In this document: positions 19,122 through 48,547 of the stretch, piece after piece
How positions within the stretch are numbered: the stretch's first letter is position 1
Layout: each line of letters begins with the position of its first letter
Assembly (NCBI GenBank): GCA_012295275.1
Contig: CM022670.1
Location: 24,242,001 to 24,306,000 of the forward strand
Length of the DNA stretch: 64,000 nucleotides
Origin: Chrysomallon squamiferum
Taxonomy: Eukaryota > Animalia > Mollusca
Reading direction: 5' to 3'
Notes under the pieces: model-generated
The model's database searches: none
What the model was told of the DNA's origin: nothing
What the model saw: the letters and a program-made list of their open reading frames with translations, nothing else
Made by a program: the position numbers and the translations under genes

Positions 19122-21749
19122 TCAGGGTCGATCTAGTTCTTGAACAAACCGTTCCCAAAACTCATCCCTGTTTCCTTCGTGCTGAAACTCAATGTATGAT
19201 CCTTCTTCGATCATCTTTCGTATTTTATGTGGAAGTTTGCTGTATGGGAAATCCCCCAGTATAAGAAGAAATAGATTATTTCGATGTGCGGATTCTTCAA
19301 TAGCCATTCTCATTTCGAACACACACCACTCACTTTTAATGAAATTTTCCGATAGAACAAGAACTGTTTTCCTGCTTTCTTTCACCGCTTTTATTATATT
19401 TATTGTTATTGGAGTCCCTGGAATAAAATCTATTCCATGCACTGTCAGTTTCTTGTTTGCTTCTGTTACAAGCCTTTCATACATTTCTGCTTGGACTACT
19501 TCCTGATCGTCGTTGCTGTAGGAGATAAAGGCATCTTTGGGAAATCTTCCCTGACGAGATCTCTGGCGATCTTTTTTAAAACTATACCTAATGCCATAGT
19601 ACCAGTATCTGAGTTTCCAACGGTGTTGGTACGCTAGACTCGCAAAAAATACAATCCACAAAAAGGCAAACGCTAGAACAGTACCTTTTGCTACAGCAAC
19701 GTAGTTAAAACAGAAAGCCTCTAAGGATTCCACCACTGATTTAAGGTCAGCGAGGTGAACAGTGTGTCCTGATTCATTGAGACAATAGTACTCATTCATA
19801 TTCTCCAGGATCACAGGACTGGTCAGCATCCATTTCAGAAACCACAAATTTGGACATTCACACGAGATGGGATTGTGACTCAGATCTATCGCTACTGAAT
19901 GTTTATTTGCTTTTACTAGGCTGTCTAGTTCAGATGTTAATGTATCAGACAGCCATCTGATTTTGTTTCTTGAGAAATCAATTTTTCGCAAGTTTTTCAT
20001 ATGATTTACATGTATTGGTATATTATATAGATTATTCCACGACAGTATCAGAGATTCCAAATTTGAAAGTCCAGTGAAAATCTTTTCTGGTAACTGGTCA
20101 AGATTATTAAAAGAAAGGTCCATATACTGAAGAGAAGATAAGTGTTTGAATAAATCTCCATCGATGTCGTTCATTATTGGATTTTTTAACAGATTATGTG
20201 ATATATTTAATACAGTTAACGAGGGTAGGTTATCAAAGAATTCCGAGTGAAGATGCATAGCATCATTGTGCGACAAATCCAGATTTGTAAGGTTGGACAA
20301 ACCAGTAACTGGTCCCTTCCACGACGCCAGTAGATTGTACGAAACATTAATCGTCTTCAGCTCGTTCATTCCCAGAAGTAGTTCAGATATTTCAAATGCC
20401 AATTCTTCGTATGTGTATTTTAGTGTTTCCAGTTTAGGTGGGAGAAAAATAATGGGCTGACCGTTACAATTGGTTTGAGGATCAAACGGGTTGTTCTGTT
20501 CTTGGTTGAAGTGTTCTAACCATTCGTAATCAACGTCTTCCACTGCCTTGGAACAAATCTGATCTTCTTCGTCTATTTGGTCATGAAAGTTTGGTATAGG
20601 TATGTTGCGGGGTCCTGAAATACCACTGAGATCAATTTCAGTGAGATTTTGCAAAAAAACTATTTGTTCAATGTATTTACCTATAGCAAACCAGCTATTT
20701 CTCAAAGTAACTTTACGCAGTGTCCGAGGGAAAAATCGCAATGCATCAATTTCGAATATTTGAATTCTATTTCCGTCCGCGTATATTTCTTCAATTATCG
20801 TATTTCTCATATATTTCACGTTGTCTTTGGTGATATATACACAAACTTCGTGTTTTTCGACCACGTAACTAATGTTCAGGATGCGAAGTGACGAGTTTTG
20901 CCAGCCGTACGAACCATTGAACAGCCTGTCTATCTTCAGACGTCTGTTGTAAGAGATATCAAGAACCTCAAGTGACGATTTAAGCGGGACAAATGCTGCA
21001 GGTTCGATGTAGACGATGTTGCAATTTGATATATTCAGCAGCTTCACGTGGCTGATGTGAGTAAAAGTTGTGTTAAACAATGCTACAATATTGCTGTCTT
21101 CGTGTTCTCCCGCAAGACTCAGATGAGTTAGGGAAACGAGATTTGAAAATCCTTGTCCGAAACTTTGATTGGTCAAGCCATCAAGATGAAGCTGTTGCAA
21201 GGACACCAGATAGGACAATGCTTTGTCCGGATACTTCAAGTCTTTTCGTTGTCCTGAGTATGCGTTCCCATTCAGCTTTAAAGACTTTAATTTCCTCAGT
21301 GATTTAAAAATATCGGAATTGAAGACACTTTCAACATAAGGCAAAACGTTCCTCTGCAAATTCAAGACTTCTAGTTTGTCCAGGTTGCGAAGTGCCCGGA
21401 CATCTATAACTGATATCTTGTTTGAAGCCAAATTCAGTTCTAATAGATTCGTGAAGTTGATAAAACAATCATTTTCCAGCTTGTCTAAGTGATTAAAATC
21501 CAGCAAAAGTACTGAAACGTTCTTGGCGATATGCAAGTTAGGTACAGACGTCAAATTTTTATTCGTGCACACAGCTACAATGGAGCCATTGTTTTCTCTG
21601 CACAAACAGGGAGCGCACGGATCATCAAGTTGTGAAGTCTCTTCAGACGCTGGTATGACTTGAACTTCTGACTTTGTCGAAATATTGACTGAACGTACAG
21701 AGCAAGCCAACAAAAACACAAACACAGATACTCGAATGTCGTGAGCCAT
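19122..21749 (-). CDS. Toll-like receptor copy 1, intact, 875 aa, single-cysteine-cluster type
   Basis: Signal peptide MAHDIRVSVFVFLLACSVRS, LRRNT (CAPCLC..C), many LxxLxLxxN repeats, LRRCT (NPISCEC..WFLKW..C), TM helix, and TIR with DAFISYS, DFIPG and FW box 3. The ATG at 21749 lies 8 nt after a ttttgcag splice acceptor, so the ORF-track extension to 21989 is intronic. Confidence 0.95.
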   Translation of the reverse strand: MAHDIRVSVFVFLLACSVRSVNISTKSEVQVIPASEETSQLDDPCAPCLCRENNGSIVAVCTNKNLTSVPNLHIAKNVSVLLLDFNHLDKLENDCFINFTNLLELNLASNKISVIDVRALRNLDKLEVLNLQRNVLPYVESVFNSDIFKSLRKLKSLKLNGNAYSGQRKDLKYPDKALSYLVSLQQLHLDGLTNQSFGQGFSNLVSLTHLSLAGEHEDSNIVALFNTTFTHISHVKLLNISNCNIVYIEPAAFVPLKSSLEVLDISYNRRLKIDRLFNGSYGWQNSSLRILNISYVVEKHEVCVYITKDNVKYMRNTIIEEIYADGNRIQIFEIDALRFFPRTLRKVTLRNSWFAIGKYIEQIVFLQNLTEIDLSGISGPRNIPIPNFHDQIDEEDQICSKAVEDVDYEWLEHFNQEQNNPFDPQTNCNGQPIIFLPPKLETLKYTYEELAFEISELLLGMNELKTINVSYNLLASWKGPVTGLSNLTNLDLSHNDAMHLHSEFFDNLPSLTVLNISHNLLKNPIMNDIDGDLFKHLSSLQYMDLSFNNLDQLPEKIFTGLSNLESLILSWNNLYNIPIHVNHMKNLRKIDFSRNKIRWLSDTLTSELDSLVKANKHSVAIDLSHNPISCECPNLWFLKWMLTSPVILENMNEYYCLNESGHTVHLADLKSVVESLEAFCFNYVAVAKGTVLAFAFLWIVFFASLAYQHRWKLRYWYYGIRYSFKKDRQRSRQGRFPKDAFISYSNDDQEVVQAEMYERLVTEANKKLTVHGIDFIPGTPITINIIKAVKESRKTVLVLSENFIKSEWCVFEMRMAIEESAHRNNLFLLILGDFPYSKLPHKIRKMIEEGSYIEFQHEGNRDEFWERFVQELDRP

Positions 21750-22099
21750 TCCACTTTCTGCAAAAGTTAAAAGATGTAAAAAGGGTAATTGAAATGAATG
21801 AAATAACAACAACAATAATAGAAAACAAAAGCTATTTTGTATTAGGCAGGTAGTGTATTGATAGCGGGTATTACACTGTATACACACGAACCCACCCACC
21901 CATACATATAGATACTCATACACAAACGCAACTACATACATACAAACATACATACATACATACATACATACAAACATACAGACAGACATACATACAGAGC
22001 AGAAAAAAGCTATCCTATATGTTTTTTCCCACTTTGTCTAAAAATGTTTTGTGGGGATTAAAATATTATTATTAAATATGTAATAGGTTATATAACTGG

Positions 22100-22450
22100 G
22101 ATATTTCTAGCTGACTCTAGTTGTAAGTCGGTAAATATCGTGAATCCTAGACCATAGAGCTCGGGCATGGTAGAAGAAACCTCTGGATTCCTTTCAACAC
22201 TTTGTTGCAGACTCGATGTGGAAAATCTCTGACTCCAAGTCAAAGTTGTTTCTTTCAGCTTTAGTCTTCAACAGTTGAAAGGTACATTATATCTTGGACT
22301 TCGGCACGAAGAGTATTAGTATATAAAATGCCGTCAGCTTTGCTTAATTATTCCATGTTTTTAATGACAGCAAAAATAAGAAAATTGTCTCTCCGCGTTA
22401 GCTTAGAAAGATAGGTTACTTTCATCTGTAAATGACGAACAGACACAACT
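22100..22450 (-). mobile_element. Degenerate MULE (Mutator-like) transposase fragment, unit 1
   Basis: Broken minus-strand frames read RDNFLIFAVIKNME*LSKADG..YT, then FQLLK..AERNNFDL..IFHI and ..FFYHARAL. Same block in all five units. Confidence 0.55.
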
Positions 22451-22538
22451 TAGGATCATTCACACTATCTAAAGATCATTAAAAAATCAGTTCAAGAGGG
22501 CAAAAAGTTAATATTCTCCTTTAGATCAAGTGTTGGAA

Positions 22539-23025: not shown

Positions 23026-23049
23026 TGGGAAATAGCTTCAACACAAATC

Positions 23050-23360
23050 TTTGTAATTAAATGTAGAGCGTTCTATTATCAGTTAATTAACTAAAGACAG
23101 AAACAAAGAAAAAACATTACTTACTTACTTCGTTAAAATGCTTTAAAGGTTTCCATCTTTGATGTGTGGTAACGTGGGACAGCAAATACACAACTCCTAG
23201 TGTTTCCAGGTCACTCGTTAAAAAGGTCGTCTTACTGCACAGTCCTGACTTCCTCTGAACGAGGAAAAAAAAAAAAAAAACAATCTTTGTATAGAATCGA
23301 TCACGTTAAAAAGAATCGTTTTGAGAAAGGTAACAATTTAACTTCCTGGAATTCACCAAA
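23050..23360 (-). promoter_or_regulatory. Putative TLR promoter/non-coding first-exon module 1a
   Basis: Conserved block upstream of every TLR with a minus-strand donor GAA|GTAAGT (acttac 23123-23128) that pairs with the acceptor before the ATG. Contains TGTGGT, GAGGAAGT and TGATAA motifs. Confidence 0.5.
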
Positions 23361-23397
23361 TTAATAATAAATAAAAATAAAATGTAATGACGGAGAA

Positions 23398-23610
23398 TCA
23401 GGGTCGATCTAGTTCATTAATAAATCGTTCCCAAAACTTATCCCTATTTCCTTCGTGCTGAAACTCAATATATGAGTCTGTTTCGATTATCTTACGTATT
23501 TTATGAAGATGTTTGCTTTCTTTCACCGCTTTTATTATACTTATTGTTACTGGAGTCCCTGCAATAAAATCTTTTCCATGCATTGTCAGTTTCTTTTCTA
23601 CTTTTGTTAT
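23398..23610 (-). pseudogene. Collapsed TLR remnant 1: TIR-only fragment, 61-aa ORF at 23398-23583
   Basis: MHGKDFIAGTPVTISIIKAVKES-KHLHKIRKIIETDSYIEFQHEGNRDKFWERFINELDRP aligns to the TLR C-terminus with an in-frame 45-codon deletion. Upstream it is fused directly to intron-1-type sequence. Confidence 0.88.
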
Positions 23611-23709
23611 AAAATGTTGGACTTAACAGATGATAAAACATGGCAAATAGCCTTATCCAGTAAACATTGCGGAAGTAAATTGTTTAATTTTTAAGGAAAA
23701 ATTTTAACA

Positions 23710-24020
23710 CAATCTTTGTAATTAAAAGTCGAGCGTGTCTGTTATCAGTTAATTCACTAAAGACAGAAACAAAGAAGAAACATTACTTACTTCGTTAAAA
23801 TGCTTAAAAGGTTTCGATCTTTGATGTGTGGTAACGTGGGACAGCAAATACACAACTCCTAGTGTTTCCAGGTCACTCGTTAAAAAGGTCGTCTTACTGC
23901 ACAGTCCTGACTTCCTCTGAACGAGGAAAAAAAACAAACAATACCTTTGTATAGAATCGATCACGTTAAAAAGAATATTTTGAAAAAAGGTAACAATTTA
24001 ACTTCCTGTAATTCACAAAA
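23710..24020 (-). promoter_or_regulatory. Putative first-exon module 1b (upstream of remnant 1)
   Basis: Near-identical second copy of module 1a with the same GTAAGT donor. Confidence 0.5.
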
Positions 24021-25928: not shown

Positions 25929-28555
25929 TCAGGGTCGATCTAGTTCATGAACAAACCGTTCCCAAAACTCATCCCTGTTTCCTTCGTGCTGAAACTCAAT
26001 GTATGATCCTGCTTCGATCATCTTACGTATTTTATGTGGAACTTTGCTGTATGGGAAATCCCCAGTATAAGAACAAGTAGATTATTTCGATGTGCGGATT
26101 CTGCAATAGCCATACTCATTTCGAACATACACCACTCACTTTCAAAGAAATGTTTCGATATAACAAGAACTGTTTTCCTGCTTTCTTTCACCGCTTTTAT
26201 TACACTTATTGCTATTGGTGTACATGGAATAAAATCTGTTTTAAGCAACATCAGTTTCATTCCTGCTTCTGTTGCAAGCCTTTCATACATTTCTTCTTCG
26301 ACTATTTCCTTATCCTCGTCGCTGTAGGAGATAAAGGCATCTTTGGGAAATTCTCCCTGACGAGATCTGTCGGGATGTTTTTCAAACCTATACTTAATGC
26401 CGTAGTACCAGTATCTCAGCTTCCAGCGGTGTTGGTACGCTAGACACGCAAAAAATACAATCCACAAAAAGGCAAACGCTAGAACAGTACCTTTTGCTAC
26501 AGCAACGTAGTTAAAACAGAAAGCCTCTAAGGATTCCACCACTGATTTAAGGTCAGCGAGGTGAACAGTGTGTCCTGATTCATTGAGACAATAGTACTTA
26601 TGCTTATTATCCAGGATCACAGGACTGGTCAGCATCCATTTCAGAAACCACAAATTTGGACATTCACACGAGATGGGATTGTGACTCAGATCTATCGCTA
26701 CTGAATGTTTATTTGCTTTTACTAGGCTGTCCAGTTCAGATGTTAATGTATCAGACAGCCATCTGATTCTGTTTCTTGATAAATCAATTTTACGCAAGTT
26801 TTTCATATGATTTACATGTATTGGTATATTATATAGATTATTCGACGACAGTATCAGAGATTCCAAATTTGAAAGTCCAGTGAAAATCTTTTCTGGTAAC
26901 TGGTCAAGAGCATTAAAAGAAAGGTCCATATACTGAAGAGAAGATAAGTGTTTGAATAAAACTCCATCGATGTCGTTCATTATTGGATTTTTTAACAGAT
27001 TATGTGATATATTTAATACAGTTAACGAGGGTAGGTTTTCAAAGAATTCCGAGTGAACTTGCAGAGCATCATTATGCGACAAATCCAGATTTGTAAGGTT
27101 GGACAAACCAGTAACTGGTCCCTTCCACAACGCCAGTAGATTGTACGAAACATTAATCGTCTTCAGCTCGTTCATTCCCAGAAGTAGTTCAGATATTTCA
27201 AATGCCAATTCTTGGTATGTGTATTTTAGTGTTTCCAGTTTAGGTGGTGGAAAAATAATGGGCTGACCGATAAAATTGGTTTGAGGATCAAACGGGTTGT
27301 TCTGTTCTTGGTTGAAGTCTTCTAACCATTCGTAATCAACGTCTTCCACTGCCTTTGAACAAATCTGATCTTCTTCGTCTATCTGGTCATGAAAGTTTGG
27401 TATAGGTATGTTGCGGGGTCCTGAAATACCACTGAGATCAATTTCAGTGAGATTTTGCAAAACGACTATTTGTTCAATGTATTTACCTATAGCAAACCAG
27501 CTATTTCTCAAAGTAACTTTACGCAGTGTCGGAGGGAAAAATCGCAATGCATTAACTTCGAATATTTGAATTCTATTTCCGTCGGCGTATATTTCTTCAA
27601 TTATCGTATTTCTCATATATTTCACGTTGTCTTTGGTGATATATACACAAACTTCGTGTTTTTCGACCACGTAACTAATGTTTAGGATGCGAAGTGAAGA
27701 GTTTTGCCAGCCGTACGAACCATTGAACAGCCTGTCCATCTTCAGACGTCTGTTGTAAGAGATATCAAGAACCTCAAGTGACGATTTAAGCGGGACAAAT
27801 GCTGCAGGCTCGATGTAGACGATGTTGCAATTTGATATATTCAGCAGCTTCACGTGGCTGATGTGAGTAAAAGTTGTGTTAAACAATGCTACAATATTGC
27901 TTTCTTCGTGTTCTCCCGCAAGACTCAGATGAGTTAGGGAAACGAGATTTGAAAATCCTTGTCCGAAACTTTGATTGGTCAAGCCATCAAGATGAAGCTG
28001 TTGCAAGGACACCAGATAGGACAATGCTTTGTCCGGATACTTCAAGTCTTTTCGTTGTCCTGTGTAAGCGTTCCCATTCAGATTTAAAGACTTTAATTTC
28101 CTCAGTGATTTAAAAATATCGGATTTAAAGACACTTTCAACATAAGGCAAAACATTCCTCTGCAAATTCAAGACTTCTAGTTTGTCCAAGTTGCGAAATG
28201 CCCGGACATCTATAACTGATATCTTGTTTGAATCCAAATTCAGTTCTAAAAGATTCGTGAAGTTGATAAAACAATCATTTTCCAGCTTGTCTAAGTGATT
28301 AAAATCCAGCAAAAGTACTGAAACGTTCTTGGCGATATGCAAGTTAGGTACAGACGTCAAATTTTTATTCGTGCACACAGCTACAATGGAGCCATTGTTT
28401 TCTCTGCACAAACAGGGAGCGCACGGATCATCAAGTTGTGAAGTCTCTTCAAACGCTGGTATGACTTGAACTTCTGACTTTGTCGAAATATTGACTGAAC
28501 GTACAGAGCAAGCCAACAAAAACACAAATACAGATACTCGAATGTCGTGAGCCAT
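25929..28555 (-). pseudogene. Toll-like receptor copy 2 with a 1-bp frameshift in the TIR (or a consensus error)
   Basis: 2627 bp versus 2628 bp for intact copies. The C-run at 26060-26063 has 4 C versus 5 in the other copies, giving a stop at 26018 and loss of the box-3 tail. Otherwise very close to copy 3. Confidence 0.85.
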
Positions 28556-29729: not shown

Positions 29730-30030
29730 AATCTTTGTAATTAAATGTAGAGCGTTCTATTATCAGTTAATTAACTAAAGACAGAAACAAAGAAAAAACA
29801 TTACTTAATTACTTCGTTAAAATGCTTTAAAGGTTTCGATCTTTGATGTGTGGTAACGTGGGACAGCAAATACACAACTGGTTTTCACTCGTTACAAGAG
29901 TCGTCTTACTGCACAGTCGCAACGTCCTCTGAACGAGGAAAAAGAAAAAGAATGACTTTGTATAAAATCGATCACGTTAAAAAGAATATTTTTGAGAAAG
30001 GTAACTATTTAATTTCCTTGAATTCACCAA
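29730..30030 (-). promoter_or_regulatory. Putative first-exon module 2a
   Basis: Homologous to module 1a. Donor reads GTAATT; the GAGGAAGT motif is changed to GAGGACGT. Confidence 0.45.
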
Positions 30031-30086: not shown

Positions 30087-30299
30087 TCAGGGTCGATCTA
30101 GTTCATTAATAAATCGTTCCCAAAACTTATCCCTATTTCCTTCGTGCTGAAACTCAATATATGAGTCTGTTTCGATTATCTTACGTATTTTATGAAGATG
30201 TTTGCTTTCTTTCACCGCTTTTATTATACTTATTGTTACTGGAGTCCCTGCAATAAAATCTTTTCCATGCATTGTCAGTTTCTTTTCTACTTTTGTTAT
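30087..30299 (-). pseudogene. Collapsed TLR remnant 2 (TIR-only, 61-aa ORF)
   Basis: Same peptide as remnant 1. Confidence 0.88.
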
Positions 30300-30394
30300 A
30301 AAATGTTGGACTTAACAGATGATAAAACATGGCAAATAGCCTTATCCAGTAAACATTGCGGAAGTAAATTGTTTAATTTTTAAGGAAAAATTTT

Positions 30395-30700
30395 AACACA
30401 ATCTTTGTAATTAAAAGTCGAGCGTGTCTGTTATCAGTTAATTCAATAAAGACAGAAACAAAGAAAAAACATTACTTACTTCGTTAAAATGCTTTAAAGG
30501 TTTCGATCTTTGATGTGTGGTAACGTGGGACAGCAAATACACAACTGGTTTTCACTCGTTACAAGAGTCGTCATACTGTACAGTCGCAACGTCCTCTGAA
30601 CGAGGAAAAAAAACAAACAATACCTTTGTATAAAATCGATCACGTGAAAAAGAATCTTCAGGAAAAAGGTAACAATTTAACTTCCTGTAATTCACAAAAT
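30395..30700 (-). promoter_or_regulatory. Putative first-exon module 2b
   Basis: Homologous block with GTAAGT donor. Confidence 0.45.
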
Positions 30701-32376: not shown

Positions 32377-35004
32377 TCAGGGTCGATCTAGTTCATGAAC
32401 AAACCGTTCCCAAAACTCATCCCTGTTTCCTTCGTGCTGAAACTCAATGTATGATCCTGCTTCGATCATCTTACGTATTTTATGTGGAACTTTGCTGTAT
32501 GGGAAATCCCCCAGTATAAGAACAAGTAGATTATTTCGATGTGCGGATTCTGCAATAGCCATACTCATTTCGAACATACACCACTCACTTTCAAAGAAAT
32601 GTTTCGATATAACAAGAACTGTTTTCCTGCTTTCTTTCACCGCTTTTATTACACTTATTGCTATTGGTGTACATGGAATAAAATCTGTTTTAAGCAACAT
32701 CAGTTTCATTCCTGCTTCTGTTGCAAGCCTTTCATACATTTCTTCTTCGACTATTTCCTTATCCTCGTCGCTGTAGGAGATAAAGGCATCTTTGGGAAAT
32801 TCTCCCTGACGAGATCTGTCGGGATGTTTTTCAAACCTATACTTAATGCCGTAGTACCAGTATCTCAGCTTCCAGCGGTGTTGGTACGCTAGACACGCAA
32901 AAAATACAATCCACAAAAAGGCAAACGCTAGAACAGTACCTTTTGCTACAGCAACGTAGTTAAAACAGAAAGCCTCTAAGGATTCCACCACTGAATTAAG
33001 GTCAGCGAGGTGAACAGTGTGTCCTGATTCATTGAGACAATAGTACTTATGCTTATTATCCAGGATCACAGGACTGGTCAGCATCCATTTCAGAAACCAC
33101 AAATTTGGACATTCACACGAGATGGGATTGTCACTCAGATCTATCGCTACTGAATGTTTATTTGCTGTTACTAGGCTGTCCAGTTCAGATGTTAATGTAT
33201 CAGACAGCCATCTGATTCTGTTTCTTGATAAATCAATTTTACGCAAGTTTTTCATATGATTTACATGTATTGGTATATTATATAGATTATTCGACGACAG
33301 TATCAGAGATTCCAAATTTGAAAGTCCAGTGAAAATCTTTTCTGGTAACTGGTCAAGAGCATTAAAAGAAAGGTCCATATACTGAAGAGAAGATAAGTGT
33401 TTGAATAAAACTCCATCGATGTCGTTCATTATTGGATTTTTTAACAGATTATGTGATATATTTAATACAGTTAACGAGGGTAGGTTATCAAAGAATTCCG
33501 AGTGAACTTGCAGAGCATCATTGTTCGACAAATCCAGATTTGTAAGGTTGGACAAACCAGTAACTGGTCCCTTCCACGACGCCAGTAGATTGTACGAAAA
33601 ATTCATCGTCTTCAGCTCGTTCATTCCCAGAAGTAGTTCAGATATTTCAAATGCCAATTCTTGGTATGTGTATTTTAGTGTTTCCAGTTTAGGTGGTGGA
33701 AAAATAATGGGCTGACCGATAAAATTGGTTTGAGGATCAAACGGGTTGTTCTGTTCTTGGTTGAAGTCTTCTAACCATTCGTAATCAACGTCTTCCACTG
33801 CCTTTGAACAAATCTGATCTTCTTCGTCTATCTGGTCATGAAAGTTTGGTATAGGTATGTTGCGGGGTCCTGAAATACCACTGAGATCAATTTCAGTGAG
33901 ATTTTTAAAAACGACTATTTGTTCAATGTATTTACCTATAGCCAGCCAGCTATTTCTCAAAGTAACTTTACGCAGTGTCGGAGGGAAAAATCGCAATGCA
34001 TCAACTTCGAATATTTGAATTCTATTTCCGTCCGCGTATATTTCTTCAATTATCGTATTTCTCATATATTTCAGGTTGTCTTTGGTGATATATACACAAA
34101 CTTCGTGTTTTTCGACCACGTAACTAATGTTCAGGATGCGAAGTGAAGAGTTTTGCCAGCCGTACGAACCATTGAACAGCCTGTCCAGCTTCAGACGTCT
34201 GTTGTAAGAGATATCAAGAACCTCAAGTGACGATTTAAGCGGAACAAATGCTGCAGGCTCGATGTAGACGATGTTGCAATTTGATATATTCAGCAGCTTC
34301 ACGTGGCTGATGTGAGTAAAAGTTGTGTTAAGCAATGCTACAATATTGCTGTCTTCGTGTTCTCCCGCAAGACTCAGATGAGTTAGGGAAACGAGATTTG
34401 AAAATCCTTGTCCGAAACTTTGATTGGTCAAGCCATCAAGATGTAGCTGTTGCAAGGACACCAGATAGGACAATGCTTTGTCTGGATACTTCAAGTCTTT
34501 TCGTTGTCCTGTGTAAGCGTTCCCATTCAGATTTAAAGACTTTAATTTCCTCAGTGATTTAAAAATATCGGATTTAAAGACACTTTCAACATAAGGCAAA
34601 ACGTTCCTCTGCAAATTCAAGACTTCTAGTTTGTCCAGGTTGCGAAATGCCCGGACATCTATAACTGATATCTTGTTTGAATCCAAATTCAGTTCTAAAA
34701 GATTCGTGAAGTTGATAAAACAATCATTTTCCAGCTTGTCTAAGTGATTAAAATCCAGCAAAAGTACTGAAACGTTCTTGGCGATATGCAAGTTAGGTAC
34801 AGACGTCAAATTTTTATTCGTGCACACAGCTACAATGGAGCCATTGTTTTCTCTGCACAAACAGGGAGCGCACGGATCATCAAGTTGTGAAGTCTCTTCA
34901 AACGCTGGTATGACTTGAACTTCTGACTTTGTCGAAATATTGACTGAACGTACAGAGCAAGCCAACAAAAACACAAACACAGATACTCGAATGTCGTGAG
35001 CCAT
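32377..35004 (-). CDS. Toll-like receptor copy 3, intact, 875 aa, divergent TIR type (LLKTDFIPC)
   Basis: Same architecture as copy 1. ATG at 35004 follows a ttttgcag acceptor; 2628 bp open frame. Confidence 0.95.
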   Translation of the reverse strand: MAHDIRVSVFVFLLACSVRSVNISTKSEVQVIPAFEETSQLDDPCAPCLCRENNGSIVAVCTNKNLTSVPNLHIAKNVSVLLLDFNHLDKLENDCFINFTNLLELNLDSNKISVIDVRAFRNLDKLEVLNLQRNVLPYVESVFKSDIFKSLRKLKSLNLNGNAYTGQRKDLKYPDKALSYLVSLQQLHLDGLTNQSFGQGFSNLVSLTHLSLAGEHEDSNIVALLNTTFTHISHVKLLNISNCNIVYIEPAAFVPLKSSLEVLDISYNRRLKLDRLFNGSYGWQNSSLRILNISYVVEKHEVCVYITKDNLKYMRNTIIEEIYADGNRIQIFEVDALRFFPPTLRKVTLRNSWLAIGKYIEQIVVFKNLTEIDLSGISGPRNIPIPNFHDQIDEEDQICSKAVEDVDYEWLEDFNQEQNNPFDPQTNFIGQPIIFPPPKLETLKYTYQELAFEISELLLGMNELKTMNFSYNLLASWKGPVTGLSNLTNLDLSNNDALQVHSEFFDNLPSLTVLNISHNLLKNPIMNDIDGVLFKHLSSLQYMDLSFNALDQLPEKIFTGLSNLESLILSSNNLYNIPIHVNHMKNLRKIDLSRNRIRWLSDTLTSELDSLVTANKHSVAIDLSDNPISCECPNLWFLKWMLTSPVILDNKHKYYCLNESGHTVHLADLNSVVESLEAFCFNYVAVAKGTVLAFAFLWIVFFACLAYQHRWKLRYWYYGIKYRFEKHPDRSRQGEFPKDAFISYSDEDKEIVEEEMYERLATEAGMKLMLLKTDFIPCTPIAISVIKAVKESRKTVLVISKHFFESEWCMFEMSMAIAESAHRNNLLVLILGDFPYSKVPHKIRKMIEAGSYIEFQHEGNRDEFWERFVHELDRP

Positions 35005-35224
35005 TCCACTTTCTGCAAAAGTTAAAAGATGTAAAAAGGGTAATTGAAATGAATTAAATAACAACAACAATAATAGAAAACAAAAGCTATTTTGTATTAG
35101 GCAGGTAGTGTATTGATAGCGGGTATTACACTGTATACACACGAACCCACCCACCCATTCATATAGATACACATATACAAACGCAACTACAAACATACAA
35201 ACATTAGTCTATGTGGCTAACTGG

Positions 35225-36174: not shown

Positions 36175-36490
36175 AAATCTTTGTAATTAAATGTAGAGCG
36201 TTCTATTATCAGTTAATTAACTAAAGACAGAAACAAAGAAAAAACATTACTTAATTACTTCGTTAAAATGCTTTAAAGGTTTCGATCTTTGATGTGTGGT
36301 AACGTGGGACAGCAAATACACAACTCCTAGTGTTTCCAGGTCACTCGATACAAGAGTCGTCTTACTGCACAGTCGCAACGTCCTCTGAACGAGGAAAAAG
36401 AAAAAGAATGACTTTGTATAAAATCGATCACGTTAAAAAGAATATTTTTGAGAAAGGTAACTATTTAATTTCCTTGAATTCACCAAATTA
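36175..36490 (-). promoter_or_regulatory. Putative first-exon module 3a
   Basis: Homologous to modules 1a and 2a. Confidence 0.45.
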
Positions 36491-36542: not shown

Positions 36543-36755
36543 TCAGGGTCGATCTAGTTCATTAATAAATCGTTCCCAAAACTTATCCCTATTTCCTTCG
36601 TGCTGAAACTCAATATATGAGTCTGTTTCGATTATCTTACGTATTTTATGAAGATGTTTGCTTTCTTTCACCGCTTTTATTATACTTATTGTTACTGGAG
36701 TCCATGCAATAAAATCTTTTCCATGCATTGTCAGTTTCTTTTCTACTTGTGTTAT
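36543..36755 (-). pseudogene. Collapsed TLR remnant 3 (TIR-only, 61-aa ORF, DFIAW)
   Basis: As remnants 1 and 2 but with G>W after the BB-loop Ala. Confidence 0.88.
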
Positions 36756-36849
36756 AAAATGTTGGACTTAACAGATAATAAAACATGGCAAATAGCCTGA
36801 TCCAGTAAACATTGCGGAAGTAAATTGTTTAATTTTTAAGGAAAATTTT

Positions 36850-37160
36850 TAACACAATCTTTGTAATTAAAAGTCGAGCGTGTCTGTTATCAATTAATTC
36901 ACTGAAGACAGAAACAAAGAAAAAACATTACTTACTTCGTTAAAATGCTTTAAAGGTTTCGATCTTTGATGTGTGGTAACGTGGGACAGCAAATACACAA
37001 CTGGTTTTCACTCGATACAAGAGTCGTCATACTGCACAGTCGCAACGTCCTCTGAACGAGGAAAAAAAAAAAACAATACCTTTGTATAAAATCGATCACG
37101 TGAAAAAGAATCTTCAGGAAAAAGGTAACAATTTAACTTCCTGTAATTCACAAAATTTTA
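36850..37160 (-). promoter_or_regulatory. Putative first-exon module 3b
   Basis: Homologous block with GTAAGT donor. Confidence 0.45.
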
Positions 37161-39361: not shown

Positions 39362-39367
39362 AATAAT

Positions 39368-39448
<81 letters not shown>

Positions 39449-39449
39449 C

Positions 39450-39490
<41 letters not shown>

Positions 39491-39529: not shown

Positions 39530-42156
39530 TCAGGGTCGATCTAGTTCTTGAACAAACCGTTCCCAAAACTCATCCCTGTTTCCTTCGTGCTGAAACTCAA
39601 TATATGATCCTGTTTCCAGCATCTTACGTATTTTATGTGGAAGTTTGCTGTATGGGAAATCCCCCAGTGTAAGAAGAAGTAGATTATTTCGATGTGCGGA
39701 TTCTTCAATAGCCATTCTCATTTCGAACATACACCACTCACTTTCAATGAAATTTTCCGATATAACAAGAACTGTTTTCCTGCTTTCTTTCACCGCTTTT
39801 ATTATATTTATTGTTATTGGAGTCCCTGCAATAAAATCTATTCCATGCACTGTCAGTTTCTTGTTTGCTTCTGTTACAAGCCTTTCATACATTTCTTCTT
39901 CGACTACTTCCTGATCGTCGTTGCTGTAGGAGATAAAGGCATCTTTGGGAAATCTTCCCTGACGAGATCTCTGGCGATCTTTTTTAAAACTATACCTAAT
40001 GCCATAGTACCAGTATCTGAGTTTCCAGCGCTGTTGGTACGCTAGACACGCAAAAAATACAATCCACAAAAAGGCAAACGCTAGAACAGTACCTTTTGCT
40101 ACAGCAACGTAGTTAAAACAGAAAGCCTCTAAGGATTCCACCACTGATTTAAGGTCAGCGAGGTGAACAGTGTGTCCTGATTCATTGAGACAATAGTACT
40201 CATTCATATTCTCCAGGATCACAGGACTGGTCAGCATCCATTTCAGAAACCACAAATTTGGACATTCACACGAGATGGGATTGTGACTCAGATCTATCGC
40301 TATTGAATGATTATTTGCTTTTACTAGGCTGTCCAGTTCAAATGTTAATTTATCAGACAACCATCTGATTTTATTTCTTGAGAAATCAATTTTACGCAAG
40401 TTTTTCATATGATTTACATGTATTGGCATATTATATAAATTATTACAAGACAGTATCAGAAATTCCAAATTTGAAAGTCCAATGAAAATCTTTTCTGGTA
40501 ACTGGTCAAGATTATTAAAAGAAAGGTCCATATACTCAACAGACGATAAGTGTTTGAATAAAACTCCATCGACGTCGTTCATTATTGGATTTTTTAAAAG
40601 ATTATGTGATATATTTAATACCTTTAACGAAGGTACGTTTCGAAAGAATTCCGAGTGAAGATGCATAGCATCATTGTTCGACAAATCCAGATTTGTAAGG
40701 TTGGACAAACCAGTAACTGGTCCCTTCCACGACGCCAGTAGATTGTACGAAAAATTCATCGTCTTCAGCACGTTCATTCCCATACGCAGTTCAGATATTT
40801 CAAATGCCAATTCTTCGTATGTGTATTTTAGTGTTTCCAGTTTAGGTGGTGGAAAAATAATGGGCTGACCGATAAAATTTGTTTGAAGATCAAACGGGTT
40901 GTTCTGTTCTTGGTTGAAGTCTTCTAACCATTCGTAATCAACGTCTTCCACTGCCTTGGAACAAATCTGATCTTCTTCGTCTATTTGGTCATGAAAGTTT
41001 GGTATAGGTATGTTGCGGGGTCCTGAAATACCACTGAGATCAATTTCAGTGAGATTTTGCAAAAACCTATTTGTTCAATATATTTACCTATAGCCAACCA
41101 GCTATTTCTCAAAGTAACTTTACGCAGTGTCCGAGGGAAAAATCGCAATGCATCAACTTCGAATATTTGAATTCTATTTCCGTCCGCGTATATTTCTTCA
41201 ATTATCGTATTTCTCATATATTTCAGGTTGTCTTTGGTGATATATACACAGACTTCTTCTTTTTCGACCACGTAACTAATGTTCAGGATGCGAAGTGAAG
41301 AGTTTTGCCAGCCGTACGAACCATTGAACAGCCTGTCCATCTTCAGACGTCTGTTGTAAGAGATATCAAGAACCTCAAGTGACGATTTAAGCGGGACAAA
41401 TGCTGCAGGTTCGATGTAGACGATGTTGCAATTTGATATATTCAGCAGCTTCACGTGGCTGATGTGAGTAAAAGTTGTGTTAAACAATGCTACAATATTG
41501 CTGTCTTCGTGTTCTCCCGCAAGACTCAGATGAGTTAGGGAAACGAGATTTGAAAATCCTTGTCCGAAACTTTGATTGGTCAAGCCATCAAGATGAAGCT
41601 GTTGCAAGGACACCAGATAGGACAATGCTTTGTCCGGATACTTCAAGTCTTTTCGTTGTCCTGAGTATGCGTTCCCATTCAGATTTAAAGACTTTAAATT
41701 CCTCAGTGATTTAAAAATATCGGAATTGAAGACACTTTCAACATAAGGCAAAACGTTCCTCTGCAAATTCAAGACTTCTAGTTTGTCCAGGTTGCGAAAT
41801 GCCCAGATATCTATAACTGATATTTTGTTTGAAGCCAAATTCAGTTCTAATAGATTCGTGAAGTTGATAAAACAATCATTTTCCAGCTTGTCTAAGTGAT
41901 TAAAATCCAGCAAAAGTACTGAAACGTTCTTGGCGATATGCAAGTTAGGTACAGACGTCAAATTTGTATTCGTGCACACAGCTACAATGGAGCCATTGTT
42001 TTCTCTGCACAAACAGGGAGCGCACGGATCATCAAGTTGTGAAGTCTCTTCAGACGCTGGTATGACTTGAACTTCTGACTTTGTCAAAATATTGACTGAA
42101 CGTACAGAGCAAGCCAACAAAAACACAAATACAGATACTCGAATGTCGTGAGCCAT
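39530..42156 (-). pseudogene. Toll-like receptor copy 4 with a 1-bp frameshift mid-ectodomain (or a consensus error); BB-loop DFIAG
   Basis: 2627 bp. gcaaaaacctat at 41059-41070 versus gcaaaaacactat in copy 5 splits it into a 391-aa N-terminal ORF and a 510-aa C-terminal frame. No other lesions seen. Confidence 0.85.
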
Positions 42157-43479: not shown

Positions 43480-43800
43480 CACAACTTTTTGTAATTAAAT
43501 GTCGAGCGTGTCTGTTATCAGTTAGTTAACTAAAGAAAGAAAGAAAGAAAAGGCATACTTACTTCGCTAAAATGCTTTAAAGGTTTTGATCTTTGATGTG
43601 TGGTAACGTGGGACAGCAAATACACAATTCCTAGAGTTTCGAGGTCACTCGCTGCCAGGGTCATGTTACTCCTGAGTCGCGACTTCCTCTGAACGAGGAA
43701 AAAGAAGGATGCCTTCGTATAGAATCGATCACGTTGAAAGAAACGTTTTTGGAAAGGTTTACAATTTAATTTCGTTAAATTCATAAAATTTAAAAAATAC
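43480..43800 (-). promoter_or_regulatory. Putative first-exon module of TLR copy 4 (single copy)
   Basis: Donor acttac at 43557-43562; TGTGGT ~43598; gacttcctc 43681-43689. Confidence 0.5.
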
Positions 43801-43944: not shown

Positions 43945-43985
<41 letters not shown>

Positions 43986-45738
43986 TTATTTATAATTAAT
44001 CAAGGAAAATTGCATCAGCAAAAATAAAAATTTTTACAAAAAAGAAAATGCTGAGTAATTTATTCTTGATTTATTCATTTACGCTGGTTCTAGATGCTAG
44101 TGGTCAGCCAGATGAATTAGCTGCAAATCATAAATCAACGTCTGTCGAAATTAACACGTAATTACTATAACGTTCTGTATCGCATAATCACATTTACTCT
44201 GTAACAAGTGTGTGTTGCTTACTATCAGCAGAAAAAAAACCTTAATGTAATAAAAATAACAAAATTATCAAAACTAAAAATATTAAAAATCAAAATCAAA
44301 ATAAATAAATAAATAAATAAAAAAGGTGGGAAAAAATAAAAAATAAAGTAAGCAGTTATGATATGAACGAAATAAAAATAAAGAAACTTGGTATAAGGCT
44401 AAAATGATGTAGAGAGAATAATAATTATCTTGTTCATTATTTATGTCGTGGAATTATTAAAGTACCGAAATAAGCTCGACTATTCTTGTTTCCTAATATT
44501 GTTTATCAATAGTTCTTTTCAATTACTAAGGAAATGTAAATAGAAGCAGTATTCGATCAAAACCTCAACGACATAACAGAACACGGAAAAATAATAGAAG
44601 CATTTATTTATCTAATTAACAATATTAGCTCCTGTCACATATCTACATTTAATACTTACATGTTATATGAGCTAAATATATAAAAATGTCCAGAGAGAGA
44701 GATGCAATTTTTTCTTCTTTTCTTGACATATGACATCTCAGTAATGAAATTCAAATGCCTTGAATAAGTATAAAGAAAACAGATCATCCAAAATGGCGGT
44801 CGTCAACGTCTGTGAATTTATTGAAATTATGTTATTTATTGATATAATGAAGAGGAGATTTCATTTTCAGGACGTATATTTAGAAATGATTATTTATTTG
44901 TATATGTAGCAAAATCAGAATACTTAACAACGACAAATAATGAGATGATGATGATAATATGTGAATTTGGTTGAAAAAACTTTTCACAATAAAATTATGA
45001 AGACAGATAGAAACTGACTGATAAAAAGATCAGCTGAACAGAAAATAACACAAAAATAATATATCAAAAAATGACAAAATAAAAACACGCCGAAATGGCA
45101 GGCTTTTGATAAACGAAATGATAACATCAGAGTATGTATGTTATATTTAGGCTTCTTATCCTTAGAGCAACAGATAAGTTTACTTTAAATTAATCCAGAA
45201 AAATCAATACACTTACTTCACACAGCACACACACAGACAGACACACAAACACACACACGCATACATAGACATAGACATACATAAACTAATAACAAAAATA
45301 ATAATAATAATGGCTCAAGTTCCCGACAGCGGTATTTGGAACCGAGCAAATTCCCATTCTATAACGTGGCGGACTACGATATCCTCGCGGCGGTTTTATA
45401 AAGAACCTCTGGCTGTGCAGTGCAGCACTGTGTCCTGGGTTTTGTTTTTGGACATACGTAGATATTATTATACCGTTTTGTAATGTCAGTATGCCTCCCA
45501 GAAGTTCAGGATCACCTCATAGTAACACTGTGATGAAAAAGATGAATAAAGTGTCTACTATAAGCAACAAAAAAAAAAAAAAAAAAAAAAAATTCTTTTG
45601 AAGATGTTACAGTCGACTTAATACATGTGCCGTATCCAGTTTATATGTACATTATATACACGTTCCATACATCGGAAAATGCCATTAGTCAGCCCAGCGC
45701 TGGTCCCAGTAATACCGAGATTGAGATAATGAAACAGC

Positions 45739-45867
<129 letters not shown>

Positions 45868-45877
45868 AATAAATAAA

Positions 45878-45908
<31 letters not shown>

Positions 45909-45919
45909 ATGACGGAGAT

Positions 45920-48547
45920 TCAGGGTCGATCTAGTTCTTGAACAAACCGTTCCCAAAACTCATCCCTGTTTCCTTCGTGCTGAAACTCAATGTATGATCC
46001 TGTTTCCAGCATCTTACGTATTTTATGTGGAAGTTTGCTGTATGGGAAATCCCCCAGTATAAGAAGAAGTAGATTATTTCGATGTGCGGATTCTTCAATA
46101 GCCATTCTCATTTCGAACACACACCACTCACTTTCAATGAAATTTTCCGATATAACAAGAACTGTTTTCCTGCTTTCTTTCACCGCTTTTATTATATTTA
46201 TTGTTATTGGAGTCCCTGGAATAAAATCTATTCCATGCACTGTCAGTTTCTTGTTTGCTTCTGTTACAAGCCTTTCATACATTTCTGCTTGGACTACTTC
46301 CTGATCGTCGTTGCTGTAGGAGATAAAGGCATCTTTGGGAAATCTTCCCTGACGAGATCTCTGGCGATCTTTTTTAAAACTATACCTAATGCCATAGTAC
46401 CAGTATCTCAGCTTCCAGCGCTGTTGGTACGCTAGACACGCAAAAAATACAATCCACAAAAAGGCAAACGCTAGAACAGTACCTTTTGCTACAGCAACGT
46501 AGTTAAAACAGAAAGCCTCTAAGGATTCCACCACTGATTTAAGGTCAGCGAGGTGAACAATGTGTCCTGATTCATTGAGACAATAGTACTCATTCATATT
46601 CTCCAGGATCACAGGACTGGTCAGCATCCATTTCAGAAACCACAAATTTGGACATTCACACGAAATGGGATTGTGACTCAGATCTATCGCTATTGAATGA
46701 TTATTTGCTTTTACTAGGCTGTCCAGTTCAAATGTTAATTTATCAGACAACCATCTGATTTTGTTTCTCGAGAAATCAATTTTACGCAAGTTTTTCATAT
46801 GATTTACATGTATTGGTATATTATATAGATTATTCCACGACAGTATCAGAGATTCCAAATTTGAAAGTCCAGTGAAAATCTTTTCTGGTAACTGGTCAAG
46901 ATTATTAAAAGAAAGGTCCATATACTGAAGAGAAGATAAGTGTTTGAATAAAACTCCATCGACGTCGTTCATTATTGGATTTTTTAAAAGATTATGTGAT
47001 ATATTTAATACAGTTAACGAGGGTAGGTTATCAAAGAATTCCGAGTGAACTTGCAGAGCATCATTGTGCGACAAATCCAGATTTGTAAGGTTGGACAAAC
47101 CAGTAACTGGTCCCTTCCACGACGCCAGTAGATTGTACGAAAAATTCATCGTCTTCAGCTCGTTCATTCCCAGAAGTAGTTCAGATATTTCAAATGCCAA
47201 TTCTTCGTATGTGTATTTTAGTGTTTCCAGTTTAGGTGGGAGAAAAATAATGGGCTGACCGATAAAATTTGTTTGAAGATCAAACGGGTTGTTCTGTTCT
47301 TGGTTGAAGTCTTCTAACCATTCGTAATCAACGTCTTCCACTGCCTTTGAACAAATCTGGTCTTCTTCGTCTATCTGGTCATGAAAGTTTGGTATAGGTA
47401 TGTTGCGGGGTCCTGAAATACCACTGAGATCAATTTCAGTGAGATTTTGCAAAAACACTATTTGTTCAATATATTTACCTATAGCAAACCAGCTATTTCT
47501 CAAAGTAACTTTACGCAGTGTTCGCGGGAGAAGTTGTAGAGCACCAACTTCGAATATTTGAATTCTGTTTCCGTCCGCGTATATTTCTTCAATTATCGTA
47601 TTTCTCATATATTTCACGTTGTCTTTGGTGATATATACACAAACTTCGTGTTTTTCGACCACGTAACTAATGTTCAGGATGCGAAGTGACGAGTTTTGCC
47701 AGCCGTACGAACCATTGAACAGCCTGTCCAGCTTCAGACGTCTGTTGTAAGAGATATCAAGAACCTCAAGTGACGATTTAAGCGGGACAAATGCTGCAGG
47801 TTCGATGTAGACGATGTTGCAATTTGATATATTCAGCAGCTTCACGTGGCTGATGTGAGTAAAAGTTGTGTTAAGCAATGCTACAATATTGCTGTCTTCG
47901 TGTTCTCCCGCAAGACTCAGATGAGTTAGGGAAACGAGATTTGAAAATCCTTGTCCGAAACTTTGATTGGTCAAGCCATCAAGATGAAGCTGTTGCAAGG
48001 ACACCAGATAGGACAATGCTTTGTCCGGATACTTCAAGTCTTTTCGTTGTCCTGAGTATGCGTTCCCATTCAGATTTAAAGACTTTAAATTCCTCAGTGA
48101 TTTAAAAATATCGGAATTGAAGACACTTTCAACATATGGCAAAACGTTCCTCTGCAAATTCAAGACTTCTAGTTTGTCCAGGTTGCGAAATGCCCAGATA
48201 TCTATAACTGATATCTTGTTTGAAGCCAAATTCAGTTCTAAAAGATTCGTGAAGTTGATAAAACAATCATTTTCCAGCTTGTCTAAGTGATTAAAATCCA
48301 GCAAAAGTACTGAAACGTTCTTGGCGATATGCAAGTTAGGTACAGACGTCAAATTTTTATTCGTGCACACAGCTACAATGGAGCCATTGTTTTCTCTGCA
48401 CAAACAGGGAGCGCACGGATCATCAAGTTGTGAAGTCTCTTCAGACGCTGGTATGACTTGAACTTCTGACTTTGTCGAAATATTGACTGAACGTACAGAG
48501 CAAGCCAACAAAAACACGAATACAGATACTCGAATGTCGTGAGCCAT
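45920..48547 (-). CDS. Toll-like receptor copy 5, intact, 875 aa
   Basis: Full signal peptide-LRR-LRRCT-TM-TIR frame of 2628 bp; BB-loop DFIPG. Confidence 0.96.
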   Translation of the reverse strand: MAHDIRVSVFVFLLACSVRSVNISTKSEVQVIPASEETSQLDDPCAPCLCRENNGSIVAVCTNKNLTSVPNLHIAKNVSVLLLDFNHLDKLENDCFINFTNLLELNLASNKISVIDIWAFRNLDKLEVLNLQRNVLPYVESVFNSDIFKSLRNLKSLNLNGNAYSGQRKDLKYPDKALSYLVSLQQLHLDGLTNQSFGQGFSNLVSLTHLSLAGEHEDSNIVALLNTTFTHISHVKLLNISNCNIVYIEPAAFVPLKSSLEVLDISYNRRLKLDRLFNGSYGWQNSSLRILNISYVVEKHEVCVYITKDNVKYMRNTIIEEIYADGNRIQIFEVGALQLLPRTLRKVTLRNSWFAIGKYIEQIVFLQNLTEIDLSGISGPRNIPIPNFHDQIDEEDQICSKAVEDVDYEWLEDFNQEQNNPFDLQTNFIGQPIIFLPPKLETLKYTYEELAFEISELLLGMNELKTMNFSYNLLASWKGPVTGLSNLTNLDLSHNDALQVHSEFFDNLPSLTVLNISHNLLKNPIMNDVDGVLFKHLSSLQYMDLSFNNLDQLPEKIFTGLSNLESLILSWNNLYNIPIHVNHMKNLRKIDFSRNKIRWLSDKLTFELDSLVKANNHSIAIDLSHNPISCECPNLWFLKWMLTSPVILENMNEYYCLNESGHIVHLADLKSVVESLEAFCFNYVAVAKGTVLAFAFLWIVFFACLAYQQRWKLRYWYYGIRYSFKKDRQRSRQGRFPKDAFISYSNDDQEVVQAEMYERLVTEANKKLTVHGIDFIPGTPITINIIKAVKESRKTVLVISENFIESEWCVFEMRMAIEESAHRNNLLLLILGDFPYSKLPHKIRKMLETGSYIEFQHEGNRDEFWERFVQELDRP

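Follow-up and report, generated by a model that had tools for sequence, protein, structure and literature searches.

The question raised by the locus

Do expanded families of Toll-like receptors (TLRs) always diversify the sensor and conserve the signalling domain? The question is raised by a stretch of 64,000 nucleotides from contig CM022670.1 of Chrysomallon squamiferum (positions 24,242,001 to 24,306,000), in the following called the window. In published expanded invertebrate TLR families, diversification was found in the leucine-rich repeats (LRRs) and conservation in the intracellular TIR domain. In sea urchin TLRs the ectodomain is about three times as diverse and 2 of 170 selected sites lie in the TIR domain (PMC3367398), in mussel (Mytilus) TLRs purifying selection is stronger in the TIR domain (PMC10279657), and in Drosophila Toll-3/4 the rate of non-synonymous relative to synonymous substitution (dN/dS, omega) is higher extracellularly than intracellularly (PMC5850136). 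The window, an AT-rich piece of eukaryotic DNA, shows the reverse. Self-BLAST, tblastn and blastn revealed five tandem TLR genes on the minus strand. Each has a single-exon coding sequence (CDS) of 2628 nt encoding an 875-residue protein with LRRs, a transmembrane (TM) segment and a TIR domain. The ectodomains are 93-98% identical among the tandem copies, and the TIR domains fall into two classes, A and B, which differ at a fifth of their residues.

19122..21749, minus strand: TLR copy 1 CDS, intact, 875 aa; class A TIR at 19122-19541
25929..28555, minus strand: TLR copy 2 CDS, class B TIR; a base of a G-run is missing at codon 831 (about 26064)
32377..35004, minus strand: TLR copy 3 CDS, intact, 875 aa; class B TIR at 32377-32796
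39530..42156, minus strand: TLR copy 4 CDS; the class A TIR carries P777A, and a single base is missing at codon 364 (about 41067)
45920..48547, minus strand: TLR copy 5 CDS, intact, 875 aa; class A TIR at 45920-46339

Due to the one-base deletions in copies 2 and 4, the assembly contains copy 3 as the only intact class B gene and copies 1 and 5 as intact class A genes. Over 5.6 kb, copies 2 and 3 match at 98.2%, and in the TIR domain they are identical. The 5' flank of copy 1 resembles that of copies 2 and 3 despite its class A TIR.

Divergence of ectodomain and TIR domain

A preliminary description of the locus, based on manual counting, had reported about 12 differences between copies 1 and 3 in the first 360 residues and about 38 in the cytoplasmic part. 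These counts are exact, with 12 of 360 residues (codons 1-360) versus 38 of 167 (codons 709-875; Fisher p 1.5e-11). The contrast holds for all of codons 1-708, where 39 of 708 residues differ (p 2.3e-10 against the cytoplasmic part). The division into copies 1/4/5 (class A) and 2/3 (class B) was right as well. So were the BB-loop strings, which include those of three gene remnants in the window:

23398..23814, minus strand: remnant r1, TIR part 23398-23619, non-coding
30087..30503, minus strand: remnant r2, TIR part 30087-30308; its exon-1 type agrees with a spliced 5' end in sequencing run X1
36543..36959, minus strand: remnant r3, TIR part 36543-36764

The loop reads DFIPG in copies 1 and 5, DFIPC in copies 2 and 3, DFIAG in copy 4, r1 and r2, and DFIAW in r3, none of them with the Arg. 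The same description regarded the ectodomains as homogenised. This stands insofar as the ectodomain coding sequences are more alike than the flanks (dS 0.03-0.06 versus about 0.10-0.15). However, the first 360 residues, from which it was concluded, are the part that is most alike. In codons 361-685, copies 1 and 3 differ at 26 of 325 residues (8%) and copies 3 and 4 at up to 35 of 325, and over the whole ectodomain copies 1 and 3 differ at 38 of 685.

The ectodomain changes are not enriched on the concave face of the 15 repeats located by pattern (8/75 versus 47/427, p 1.0). Some concave-face codons do vary between copies 1 to 5, like codon 571 (W/S/S/C/W) and codon 108 (A/D/D/A/A), and ligand preference may differ. 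A dense block of differences is found in copy 5 at codons 335-342 (about 47522-47545), which reads GALQLLPR instead of DALRFFPR/P. It matches two related proteins described below, P0002 and P0033 (GALQLLP), and is therefore likely an unconverted ancestral patch.

Location of the TIR changes

The class-fixed cytoplasmic differences are concentrated in one tract, which in copy 3 contains 29 of the 33 codons.

32545..32850, minus strand: divergent tract of copy 3, codons 719-820 (juxtamembrane, alphaA, betaB, BB loop, alphaB, alphaC)
32671..32694, minus strand: class B Box 2/BB loop (copy 3), codons 771-778, LKTDFIPC
46214..46237, minus strand: class A Box 2/BB loop (copy 5), codons 771-778, HGIDFIPG

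Within the TIR domain, 24 of 28 differences fall into one segment of 75 residues, which on the predicted class B structure extends from alphaA to alphaC (scan p 0.002). The class B TIR is predicted to fold well (pLDDT 92), with the human TLR1 TIR as best fold match (TM-score 0.83), and Box 1, betaC, the Trp/Glu of alphaC and Box 3 are unchanged.

In solved mammalian assemblies, a MyD88 that joins binds through its EE surface to the BB surface of the nucleator (PMC11394124, PMC11745336). The surface residues of MyD88 (PMC13276377) were mapped to the window genes by anchors and the construct range given in PMC11394124. The numbering offset is 577 at Box 1 and Box 2 and 579 at the C-terminus; for betaD and alphaC assumed offsets were used. 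The differing positions comprise 9 of 18 BB-surface residues. They comprise 11 of 22 when BB and BC surfaces are joined, compared to 17 of 117 other positions (p 6e-4) and to 3 of 19 EE-surface residues (p 0.046). By this mapping from mammalian proteins, the differences between the classes cluster on the predicted adaptor-docking face.

The Arg of Box 2 pairs with an acidic residue of alphaA, located 12-14 positions earlier (PMC7075850). In the window genes both partners are replaced: Glu761 and Arg773 are V and I in class A, A and T in class B and I and K in the remnants. The missing Arg is thus a paired loss. We examined 181 TIR-bearing relatives, drawn from 190 proteins. His771 is kept in 140 of them, Arg773 in 161, Gly778 in 177, Asn784 in 161, Ile785 in 172 and Glu761 in 150. 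On a score of eight Box-2 residues, class A reaches 6 (without Glu and Arg) and class B 2, with only D and F left. A score as low as that of class B was found in 2 of the 181 relatives, both from the snail Gigantopelta aegis and belonging to the same ectodomain clade. The extended Box 2 of canonical MyD88-signalling TLRs, described as an acidic alphaA residue plus H-x-R-D-F-x-x-G (PMC7075850), is present in neither class.

The rare changes of class B are G778C, H771L, N784S and I785V and do not include the Pro position, on which the preliminary description had built. It started from the loss of signalling in mouse TLR4 P712H and from the Ala of TLR3 at the same position, neither of which was found verbatim in the literature searched. 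The analogy drawn from there to TLR3 and TRIF is weak. Ala occupies this position in 37 of the 181 related TLRs, and TRIF-like TIR domains are described as limited to gnathostomes (PMC7075850).

Tests for selection and gene conversion

By the Nei-Gojobori method (NG86), class A and class B TIR domains (codons 737-875) differ with dN 0.105-0.114 and dS 0.033-0.046. For the ectodomain, dN is 0.020-0.034 and dS 0.034-0.058. A rise of TIR dS in step with dN, named beforehand as the sign of an old tract not yet converted, was not found. Codon-based maximum likelihood (ML) was applied to three A/B pairs under five models, the pairs not being independent. It gave dN 0.10-0.12, dS 0.016-0.035 and omega 3.1-7.3 for the TIR domain, and omega 0.44-0.86 for the ectodomain. 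In likelihood-ratio tests of the TIR domain against omega = 1, p was 0.005-0.069 and lay below 0.05 in 13 of 15 tests, including models with double-base mutations. The class-fixed cytoplasmic codons comprise 31 non-synonymous (25 single-base, 6 multi-base) and 2 synonymous ones (binomial p 0.005-0.027). Over the whole gene the class-fixed codons are 44:5 non-synonymous to synonymous, compared to 67:41 for the other variable codons (p 3e-4). With the lineage of the remnants added, codons 760-791 show omega 6.9 (p 0.011), a test which is not independent of the A/B comparison.

The flanks provide a yardstick for the age of the copies, under the assumption that silent sites and flanks mutate equally. 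With gaps and microsatellites masked, flank divergence is 0.10-0.15 between copies 2/3 and 4/5. Between copy 1 and copies 2/3 it is 0.09-0.11 downstream and 0.03 upstream. From a divergence of 0.10-0.15, 9-10 silent differences would be expected in an unconverted TIR domain, and 3 are seen (p 0.01-0.02). In the ectodomain, 16 and 26 silent differences compare to 47 expected (p 2e-7 and 7e-4). In codons 746-820, dN is 0.17-0.20 and exceeds the flank level (p 0.009-0.083).

Exchange between the copies also seems to reach the TIR domain. Copies 1 and 5 have at most 2 silent differences in 90 TIR sites (p 0.002), and copy 1 is like copies 2/3 upstream. This argues that class A TIR domains are homogenised across class B genes and that exchange reaches the TIR without erasing the A/B difference. 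In the ectodomain, 37% of the informative-site pairs are incompatible. Taken together, the signal for selection is moderate, and selection of some kind has probably acted on the TIR domain.

Remnants, frameshifts and both TIR classes in sequencing runs

The three remnants are collapsed genes. Each begins with the exon-1 end and the start of the intron, has about 200 nt in common with the 5' end of a full gene, and continues with TIR codons ~760-875. All of them carry a 135-nt deletion in the TIR part, have no start codon and contain in-frame stops upstream. Over 222 nt, no difference separates r1 from r2 and r3 departs from them at 2 sites, which indicates one dead gene copied three times. The remnants can therefore not count as functional BB-loop variants, as they had been treated before. 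Alternative 3' exons and spliced retrocopies were considered and rejected, since neither an acceptor nor a start is present and the ends of the deletion share a 4-base microhomology and not GT..AG.

Parts of copy 3 are contained in five sequencing runs from two studies, of which X1, X2, X4 and X5 were compared. The following holds for the 28 of 76 contigs and 40 of 163 difference rows listed; X2 and X4 share few words with the query (0.18) yet were matched. In the RNA run X1, a 277-nt contig shows 1 difference to the class B TIR, where 19-21 would be expected for class A. Expression of copies 2/3, which the preliminary description had named as a point to be checked, is thereby indicated. The same contig spans the deletion site of copy 2 without a gap. 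In X2 and X4, class A TIR contigs show 46, 17 and 8 differences, as expected for copy 5. An 82-nt contig of X2 (depth 6) with copy 4-type letters spans the deletion site of copy 4 ungapped. Since contigs lose rare variants, the two deletions can be explained either as errors of the assembly or as private alleles.

X5 contains both TIR classes and the remnant junction, with 0-1 differences to class B; its class A contigs show the expected 24 and 11. The depths are 178 and 139 for class B and 89 and 77 for class A, about 2:1. X5 is likely a DNA run, since introns and flanks are covered, and may be the source of this assembly. Spliced 5' ends were found in X1 (r2/r3 exon-1 type with a copy 2/3-like CDS) and in X2 (copy 4 exon 1). 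Such ends cannot be obtained from DNA and thus reflect RNA. Both TIR classes are real and present in RNA libraries. The exact copy number may be off.

The 5' end in X1 joins exon 1 of the dead remnant (30475-30503, 36931-36959) to the copy 2/3-like CDS and skips the remnant TIR. The promoter of the collapsed paralog may have been taken over by the class B genes, as read from one contig of depth 5 in which allelic differences are possible.

Relatives in Gigantopelta aegis

The closest named relatives are TLRs of G. aegis, with 50% identity in the TIR domain and 57% in the ectodomain. Three of them are P0001 (XP_041366909.1), P0033 (XP_041361006.1) and P0137 (XP_041361993.1). In each of the 10 pairs formed by copies 3 and 5, P0001, P0002 and P0033, the TIR domains are less alike than the ectodomains. 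Outside this clade the same holds for 0 of 128 pairs with an ectodomain identity of at least 40%. Over all outside pairs it holds for 1015 of 11,753, all at ectodomain identities below 40%. This survey covers 165 proteins of 700-1100 aa; its pairs have branches in common and so lack independence. The clade has a support of 0.915 in a TIR tree (27 sequences) and 0.999 in an ectodomain tree (26 sequences), both made from chosen sequences. The ratio of TIR to ectodomain distance is 1.7-2.4 in the clade and 4.2 for copies 3 and 5, compared to a median of 0.62 and a maximum of 1.0 outside (171 pairs). P0001 and P0002 are also top hits of a search with the TIR alone, so the pattern is not created by ranking on the ectodomain.

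The two lowest Box-2 scores of the 181 relatives belong to P0033 and P0137, by substitutions that differ from those of class B. P0001 from the same species keeps all eight Box-2 residues. As far as can be judged from the protein sequences, Box 2 has been destroyed a second time in G. aegis. In close pairs of other species (those listed here plus two near-identical pairs) the inversion is not repeated. The ectodomain and TIR differences are 0.6 and 0.7% for P0002/P0191, 8.0 and 2.2% for P0036/P0193 and 10.1 and 6.1% for P0010/P0012. Short or transcript-derived close relatives amount to 2 proteins, neither above 46%. A further G. aegis protein, P0031 (205 aa), consists of a TM segment and a TIR domain without LRRs. 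Its Box 2 is intact and its TIR groups with the clade. It could be either a partial gene model or a signalling chain without a sensor.

Proposed function and alternative explanations

We tentatively favour a paired-receptor-like system, in which class A would signal and class B would damp the response. The proposal builds on the anatomy of the genes, the excess of dN over dS in the TIR domain, the location of the changes, the loss of Box 2, the occurrence of both classes in RNA and the clade-wide acceleration of the TIR. Gene conversion would homogenise the five genes, leading to low dS and similar ectodomains, and selection would hold the classes apart on the predicted docking face, leading to high dN. 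Ectodomains this alike presumably bind the same or a similar ligand and may pair as A/B heterodimers. Class A has likely retained the ability to nucleate a MyD88-type adaptor. It keeps H-x-x-D-F-x-P-G and N-I and resembles natural TLRs without Glu and Arg, so its BB face is likely usable. Class B, in which most Box-2 residues are gone, likely signals weakly and would thereby damp the response. BB-loop mutants are described as dominant negatives that act via non-functional heterodimers (PMC1945083), and by analogy a chain whose BB loop is dead could have the same effect on its dimer.

Several observations weigh against this proposal. The dN/dS signal stems from no more than two TIR lineages that are independent, a third being dead, and from about 3 silent differences. 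When the juxtamembrane codons 709-736 are included, 10 of the 15 tests become non-significant (p 0.11-0.26; copies 1 and 4), a result of the mosaic state of four silent sites at 710-718; only the tests with copy 5 hold (p 0.003-0.01). The neighbour-incompatibility test detected no clustering of conversion tracts in the ectodomain (p 0.31). The ectodomains differ at 16-49 of 685 residues, including 8 at the 75 concave-face positions checked, so that a single common ligand can only be presumed. Class A is itself without Glu761 and Arg773, like 8 of the 181 relatives, and its signalling is thus not assured. Polarised by three outgroups, 9 changes are derived in A and 6 in B, and 13 could be assigned to neither branch. 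Changes on both branches go beyond what a mere loss of signalling in B would require. The near-invariant sites are the ones altered by B-derived changes. Among the TIR contigs listed, those of X1 belong to class B and those of X2 and X4 to class A; the runs differ and are of low depth, so that co-expression in one cell can only be presumed. P0033 and P0137 show no inversion between themselves (14.5% difference in the ectodomain, 13.1% in the TIR). Finally, dN over the whole TIR is 0.11, the same as the flank divergence and the value expected under full relaxation, and the differences do not avoid conserved columns (9/47 versus 19/92, p 1.0, in 32 relatives).

The last two points lead to relaxed constraint combined with patchy conversion, an explanation that we regard as rather unlikely. 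Here, the BB half would have become unimportant after the loss of the Glu761-Arg773 pair, and the receptors would act mainly via their ectodomain or as co-receptors. The TIR domain would be a tract not recently converted and its few silent changes due to chance. Conserved columns changed at the background rate, the clade-wide acceleration of the TIR fits relaxation as well as selection, and in the array two of five copies are frameshifted in the assembly and three gene copies are dead. However, both lineages would need to have been free since the duplication, whereas non-synonymous changes account for 31 of the 33 class-fixed codons. It also does not explain why dN in codons 746-820 lies above the flank level, why no change has hit Box 1, betaC, Box 3 or the Trp/Glu of alphaC or why class A TIR domains are homogenised among themselves.

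The changes on both branches and on the BB and BC surfaces would also be expected if both classes signal, either via different partners (MyD88 paralogs, TIR-only adaptors) or as an asymmetric heterodimer whose BB loop is provided by only one of the chains. An oyster genome was described as having ten genes like MyD88 and numerous further TIR proteins (PMC4346834). In TLR2 heterodimers MyD88 is nucleated by TLR2 and not by TLR1 or TLR6 (PMC11394124), and duplicated fish TLR5a/b function as heterodimers (PMC9346482). Class B, however, departs from a Box-2 motif that is common to TLRs, IL-1Rs, TIRAP and MyD88 (PMC7075850). This suggests loss and not retargeting. We regard the explanation as unlikely.

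Even less probable seems an arms race, in which microbial TIR-binding proteins target the BB face and two TIR domains behind one sensor serve as a hedge, both activating. It would account for omega above 1 on the exposed face, also with the remnant lineage, and for the long-term acceleration in the clade. The snail from which the closest named relatives come has bacterial endosymbionts and expresses TLRs in the symbiont organ (PMC7895826). Escape should, however, spare signalling residues, and class B replaces the near-invariant Gly778, Asn784 and His771. An assembly artefact, by which classes or copy number result from collapsed or mis-joined haplotypes, would suit the likeness of copies 2 and 3, the two single-base deletions, which resemble read errors, and the uncalibrated copy number, but is highly improbable as X5 contains both TIR classes and the remnant junction and the RNA runs contain both classes.

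A broader form of the paired-receptor proposal is possible but doubtful. A gastropod TLR clade would keep one sensor and repeatedly rewire the docking face of the TIR under positive selection into activating and damping pairs. Box-2-dead partners would have arisen at least twice (class B and P0033/P0137), possibly tuning responses to resident bacteria.

Comparison with known systems

Paired receptors of the immunoglobulin superfamily couple via ITIM or ITAM/DAP12. By analogy, the array may be a tandem TLR expansion that works like paired receptors, and we do not assign it as a member of that class. Like Siglec-11/16 (PMC5701461), it consists of adjacent genes with ectodomains more alike than their age implies and with divergent cytoplasmic parts; CEACAM and CD300 pairs are paired receptors of the same kind, whose likeness is maintained by gene conversion. 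In contrast to these receptors, the array has homologous TIR domains as both tails, set apart by point changes, and opposite signalling is only proposed here. One ectodomain with two TIR domains is also known from IL-1RAcP and IL-1RAcPb, of which the latter cannot drive NF-kB (PMC9213720). That pair arises by alternative splicing and alphaC and alphaD are key, whereas here separate genes are changed mainly in alphaA, BB loop, alphaB and alphaC.

Human TLR10 and TLR1 are likewise clustered paralogs, with TLR2 partnering and ligands reported as common, which differ in signalling, and TLR10 can be anti-inflammatory (PMC12064872). Their ectodomains are old and well separated, TLR10 is mostly under purifying selection and conversion conserves the TIR domains (PMC12064872), unlike the near-identical ectodomains and the TIR omega above 1 found here. 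The divergence peak described under gene conversion for the red/green opsin genes (PMC3924837) resembles that of the array, in that fixed, functional differences rise locally between paralogs which otherwise exchange sequence. In the opsins the introns are most homogenised, whereas here the CDS is less diverged than its flanks and little silent divergence is linked to the peak.

Tandem duplication, pseudogenes and the LRR-TM-TIR architecture are shared with the TLR families of Mytilus, sea urchin and oyster (scaffold 599, PMC4346834). These are diversified in the ectodomain, unlike the window genes, in which the TIR diverges faster. A similar case is P0001, P0033 and P0137 of the same clade, in which the TIR is less conserved than the LRRs and a single species has one Box-2-intact and two destroyed members. 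This trio, compared by sequence only, has 44-59% ectodomain identity to the window genes and lost Box 2 by other substitutions. A literature search, which left subscription journals mostly and supplements wholly uncovered, gave no account of this cluster or of a TLR family so inverted.

A cluster, and with it a whole clade, with a pattern opposite to that of other families would mean that diversification in invertebrates extends to a pattern-recognition receptor's output. Near-identical receptors that differ at about 30 TIR residues offer a natural experiment on TIR-adaptor specificity and on inhibitory invertebrate TLRs. If relaxed constraint were true, this would still be a TLR lineage that departed from canonical Box-2 signalling.

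Protein architecture and further features of the window

In copies 1, 3 and 5, the LRRs were detected with Pfam LRR_8 (E 1e-37 to 1e-39) and the TIR domain with Pfam TIR/TIR_2 above the cut-off, and Box 1 and Box 3 are present. Cysteines are found at 45/48/50/61 and 630/632/656/680 with only lone ones in between, leading to one juxtamembrane cluster and no internal LRRCT-LRRNT pair. A single TM helix is predicted, the top 19-residue hydropathy windows beginning at 683-690. Following the definition of the class by LRR, LRRCT, TM and TIR, the copies qualify as single-cysteine-cluster (vertebrate-type) TLRs. In copies 1-5, an acidic non-LRR insertion at codons ~376-434 splits the ectodomain and could be a cleavage site or a flexible loop. 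The same position is occupied in P0001, P0002 and P0033 by unrelated sequences.

The proteins start with MAHDIRV, 8 bases past a splice acceptor to which RNA contigs splice a non-coding exon 1. Longer N-terminal open reading frames (ORFs) were rejected because they run through the intron, with the acceptor and the RNA junction lying directly before MAHDIRV. Eight copies of exon 1 are present in the window, five of the genes and three of the remnants.

35013-35014, minus strand: splice acceptor of copy 3
23128..23152, minus strand: copy 1 non-coding exon 1, 3' end and splice donor; exon start not mapped
29812..29836, minus strand: copy 2 own exon 1, 3' end; donor GTAATT instead of GTAAGT
36258..36282, minus strand: copy 3 own exon 1, 3' end; donor GTAATT
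43562..43586, minus strand: copy 4 exon 1, 3' end; agrees with the spliced 5' end in run X2
49632..49656, minus strand: copy 5 exon 1, 3' end

Copies 4 and 5 share an insertion of ~340 nt with poly(T)/(ATT)n just past the stop codon (39362-39483 and 45739-45860), which copies 1-3 do not have. At 1949-2962 on the minus strand, a single-exon ORF of 337 aa with a TEAD-interacting omega loop (Pfam TEADIR3), presumably FAM181, can serve as a synteny anchor for the cluster.

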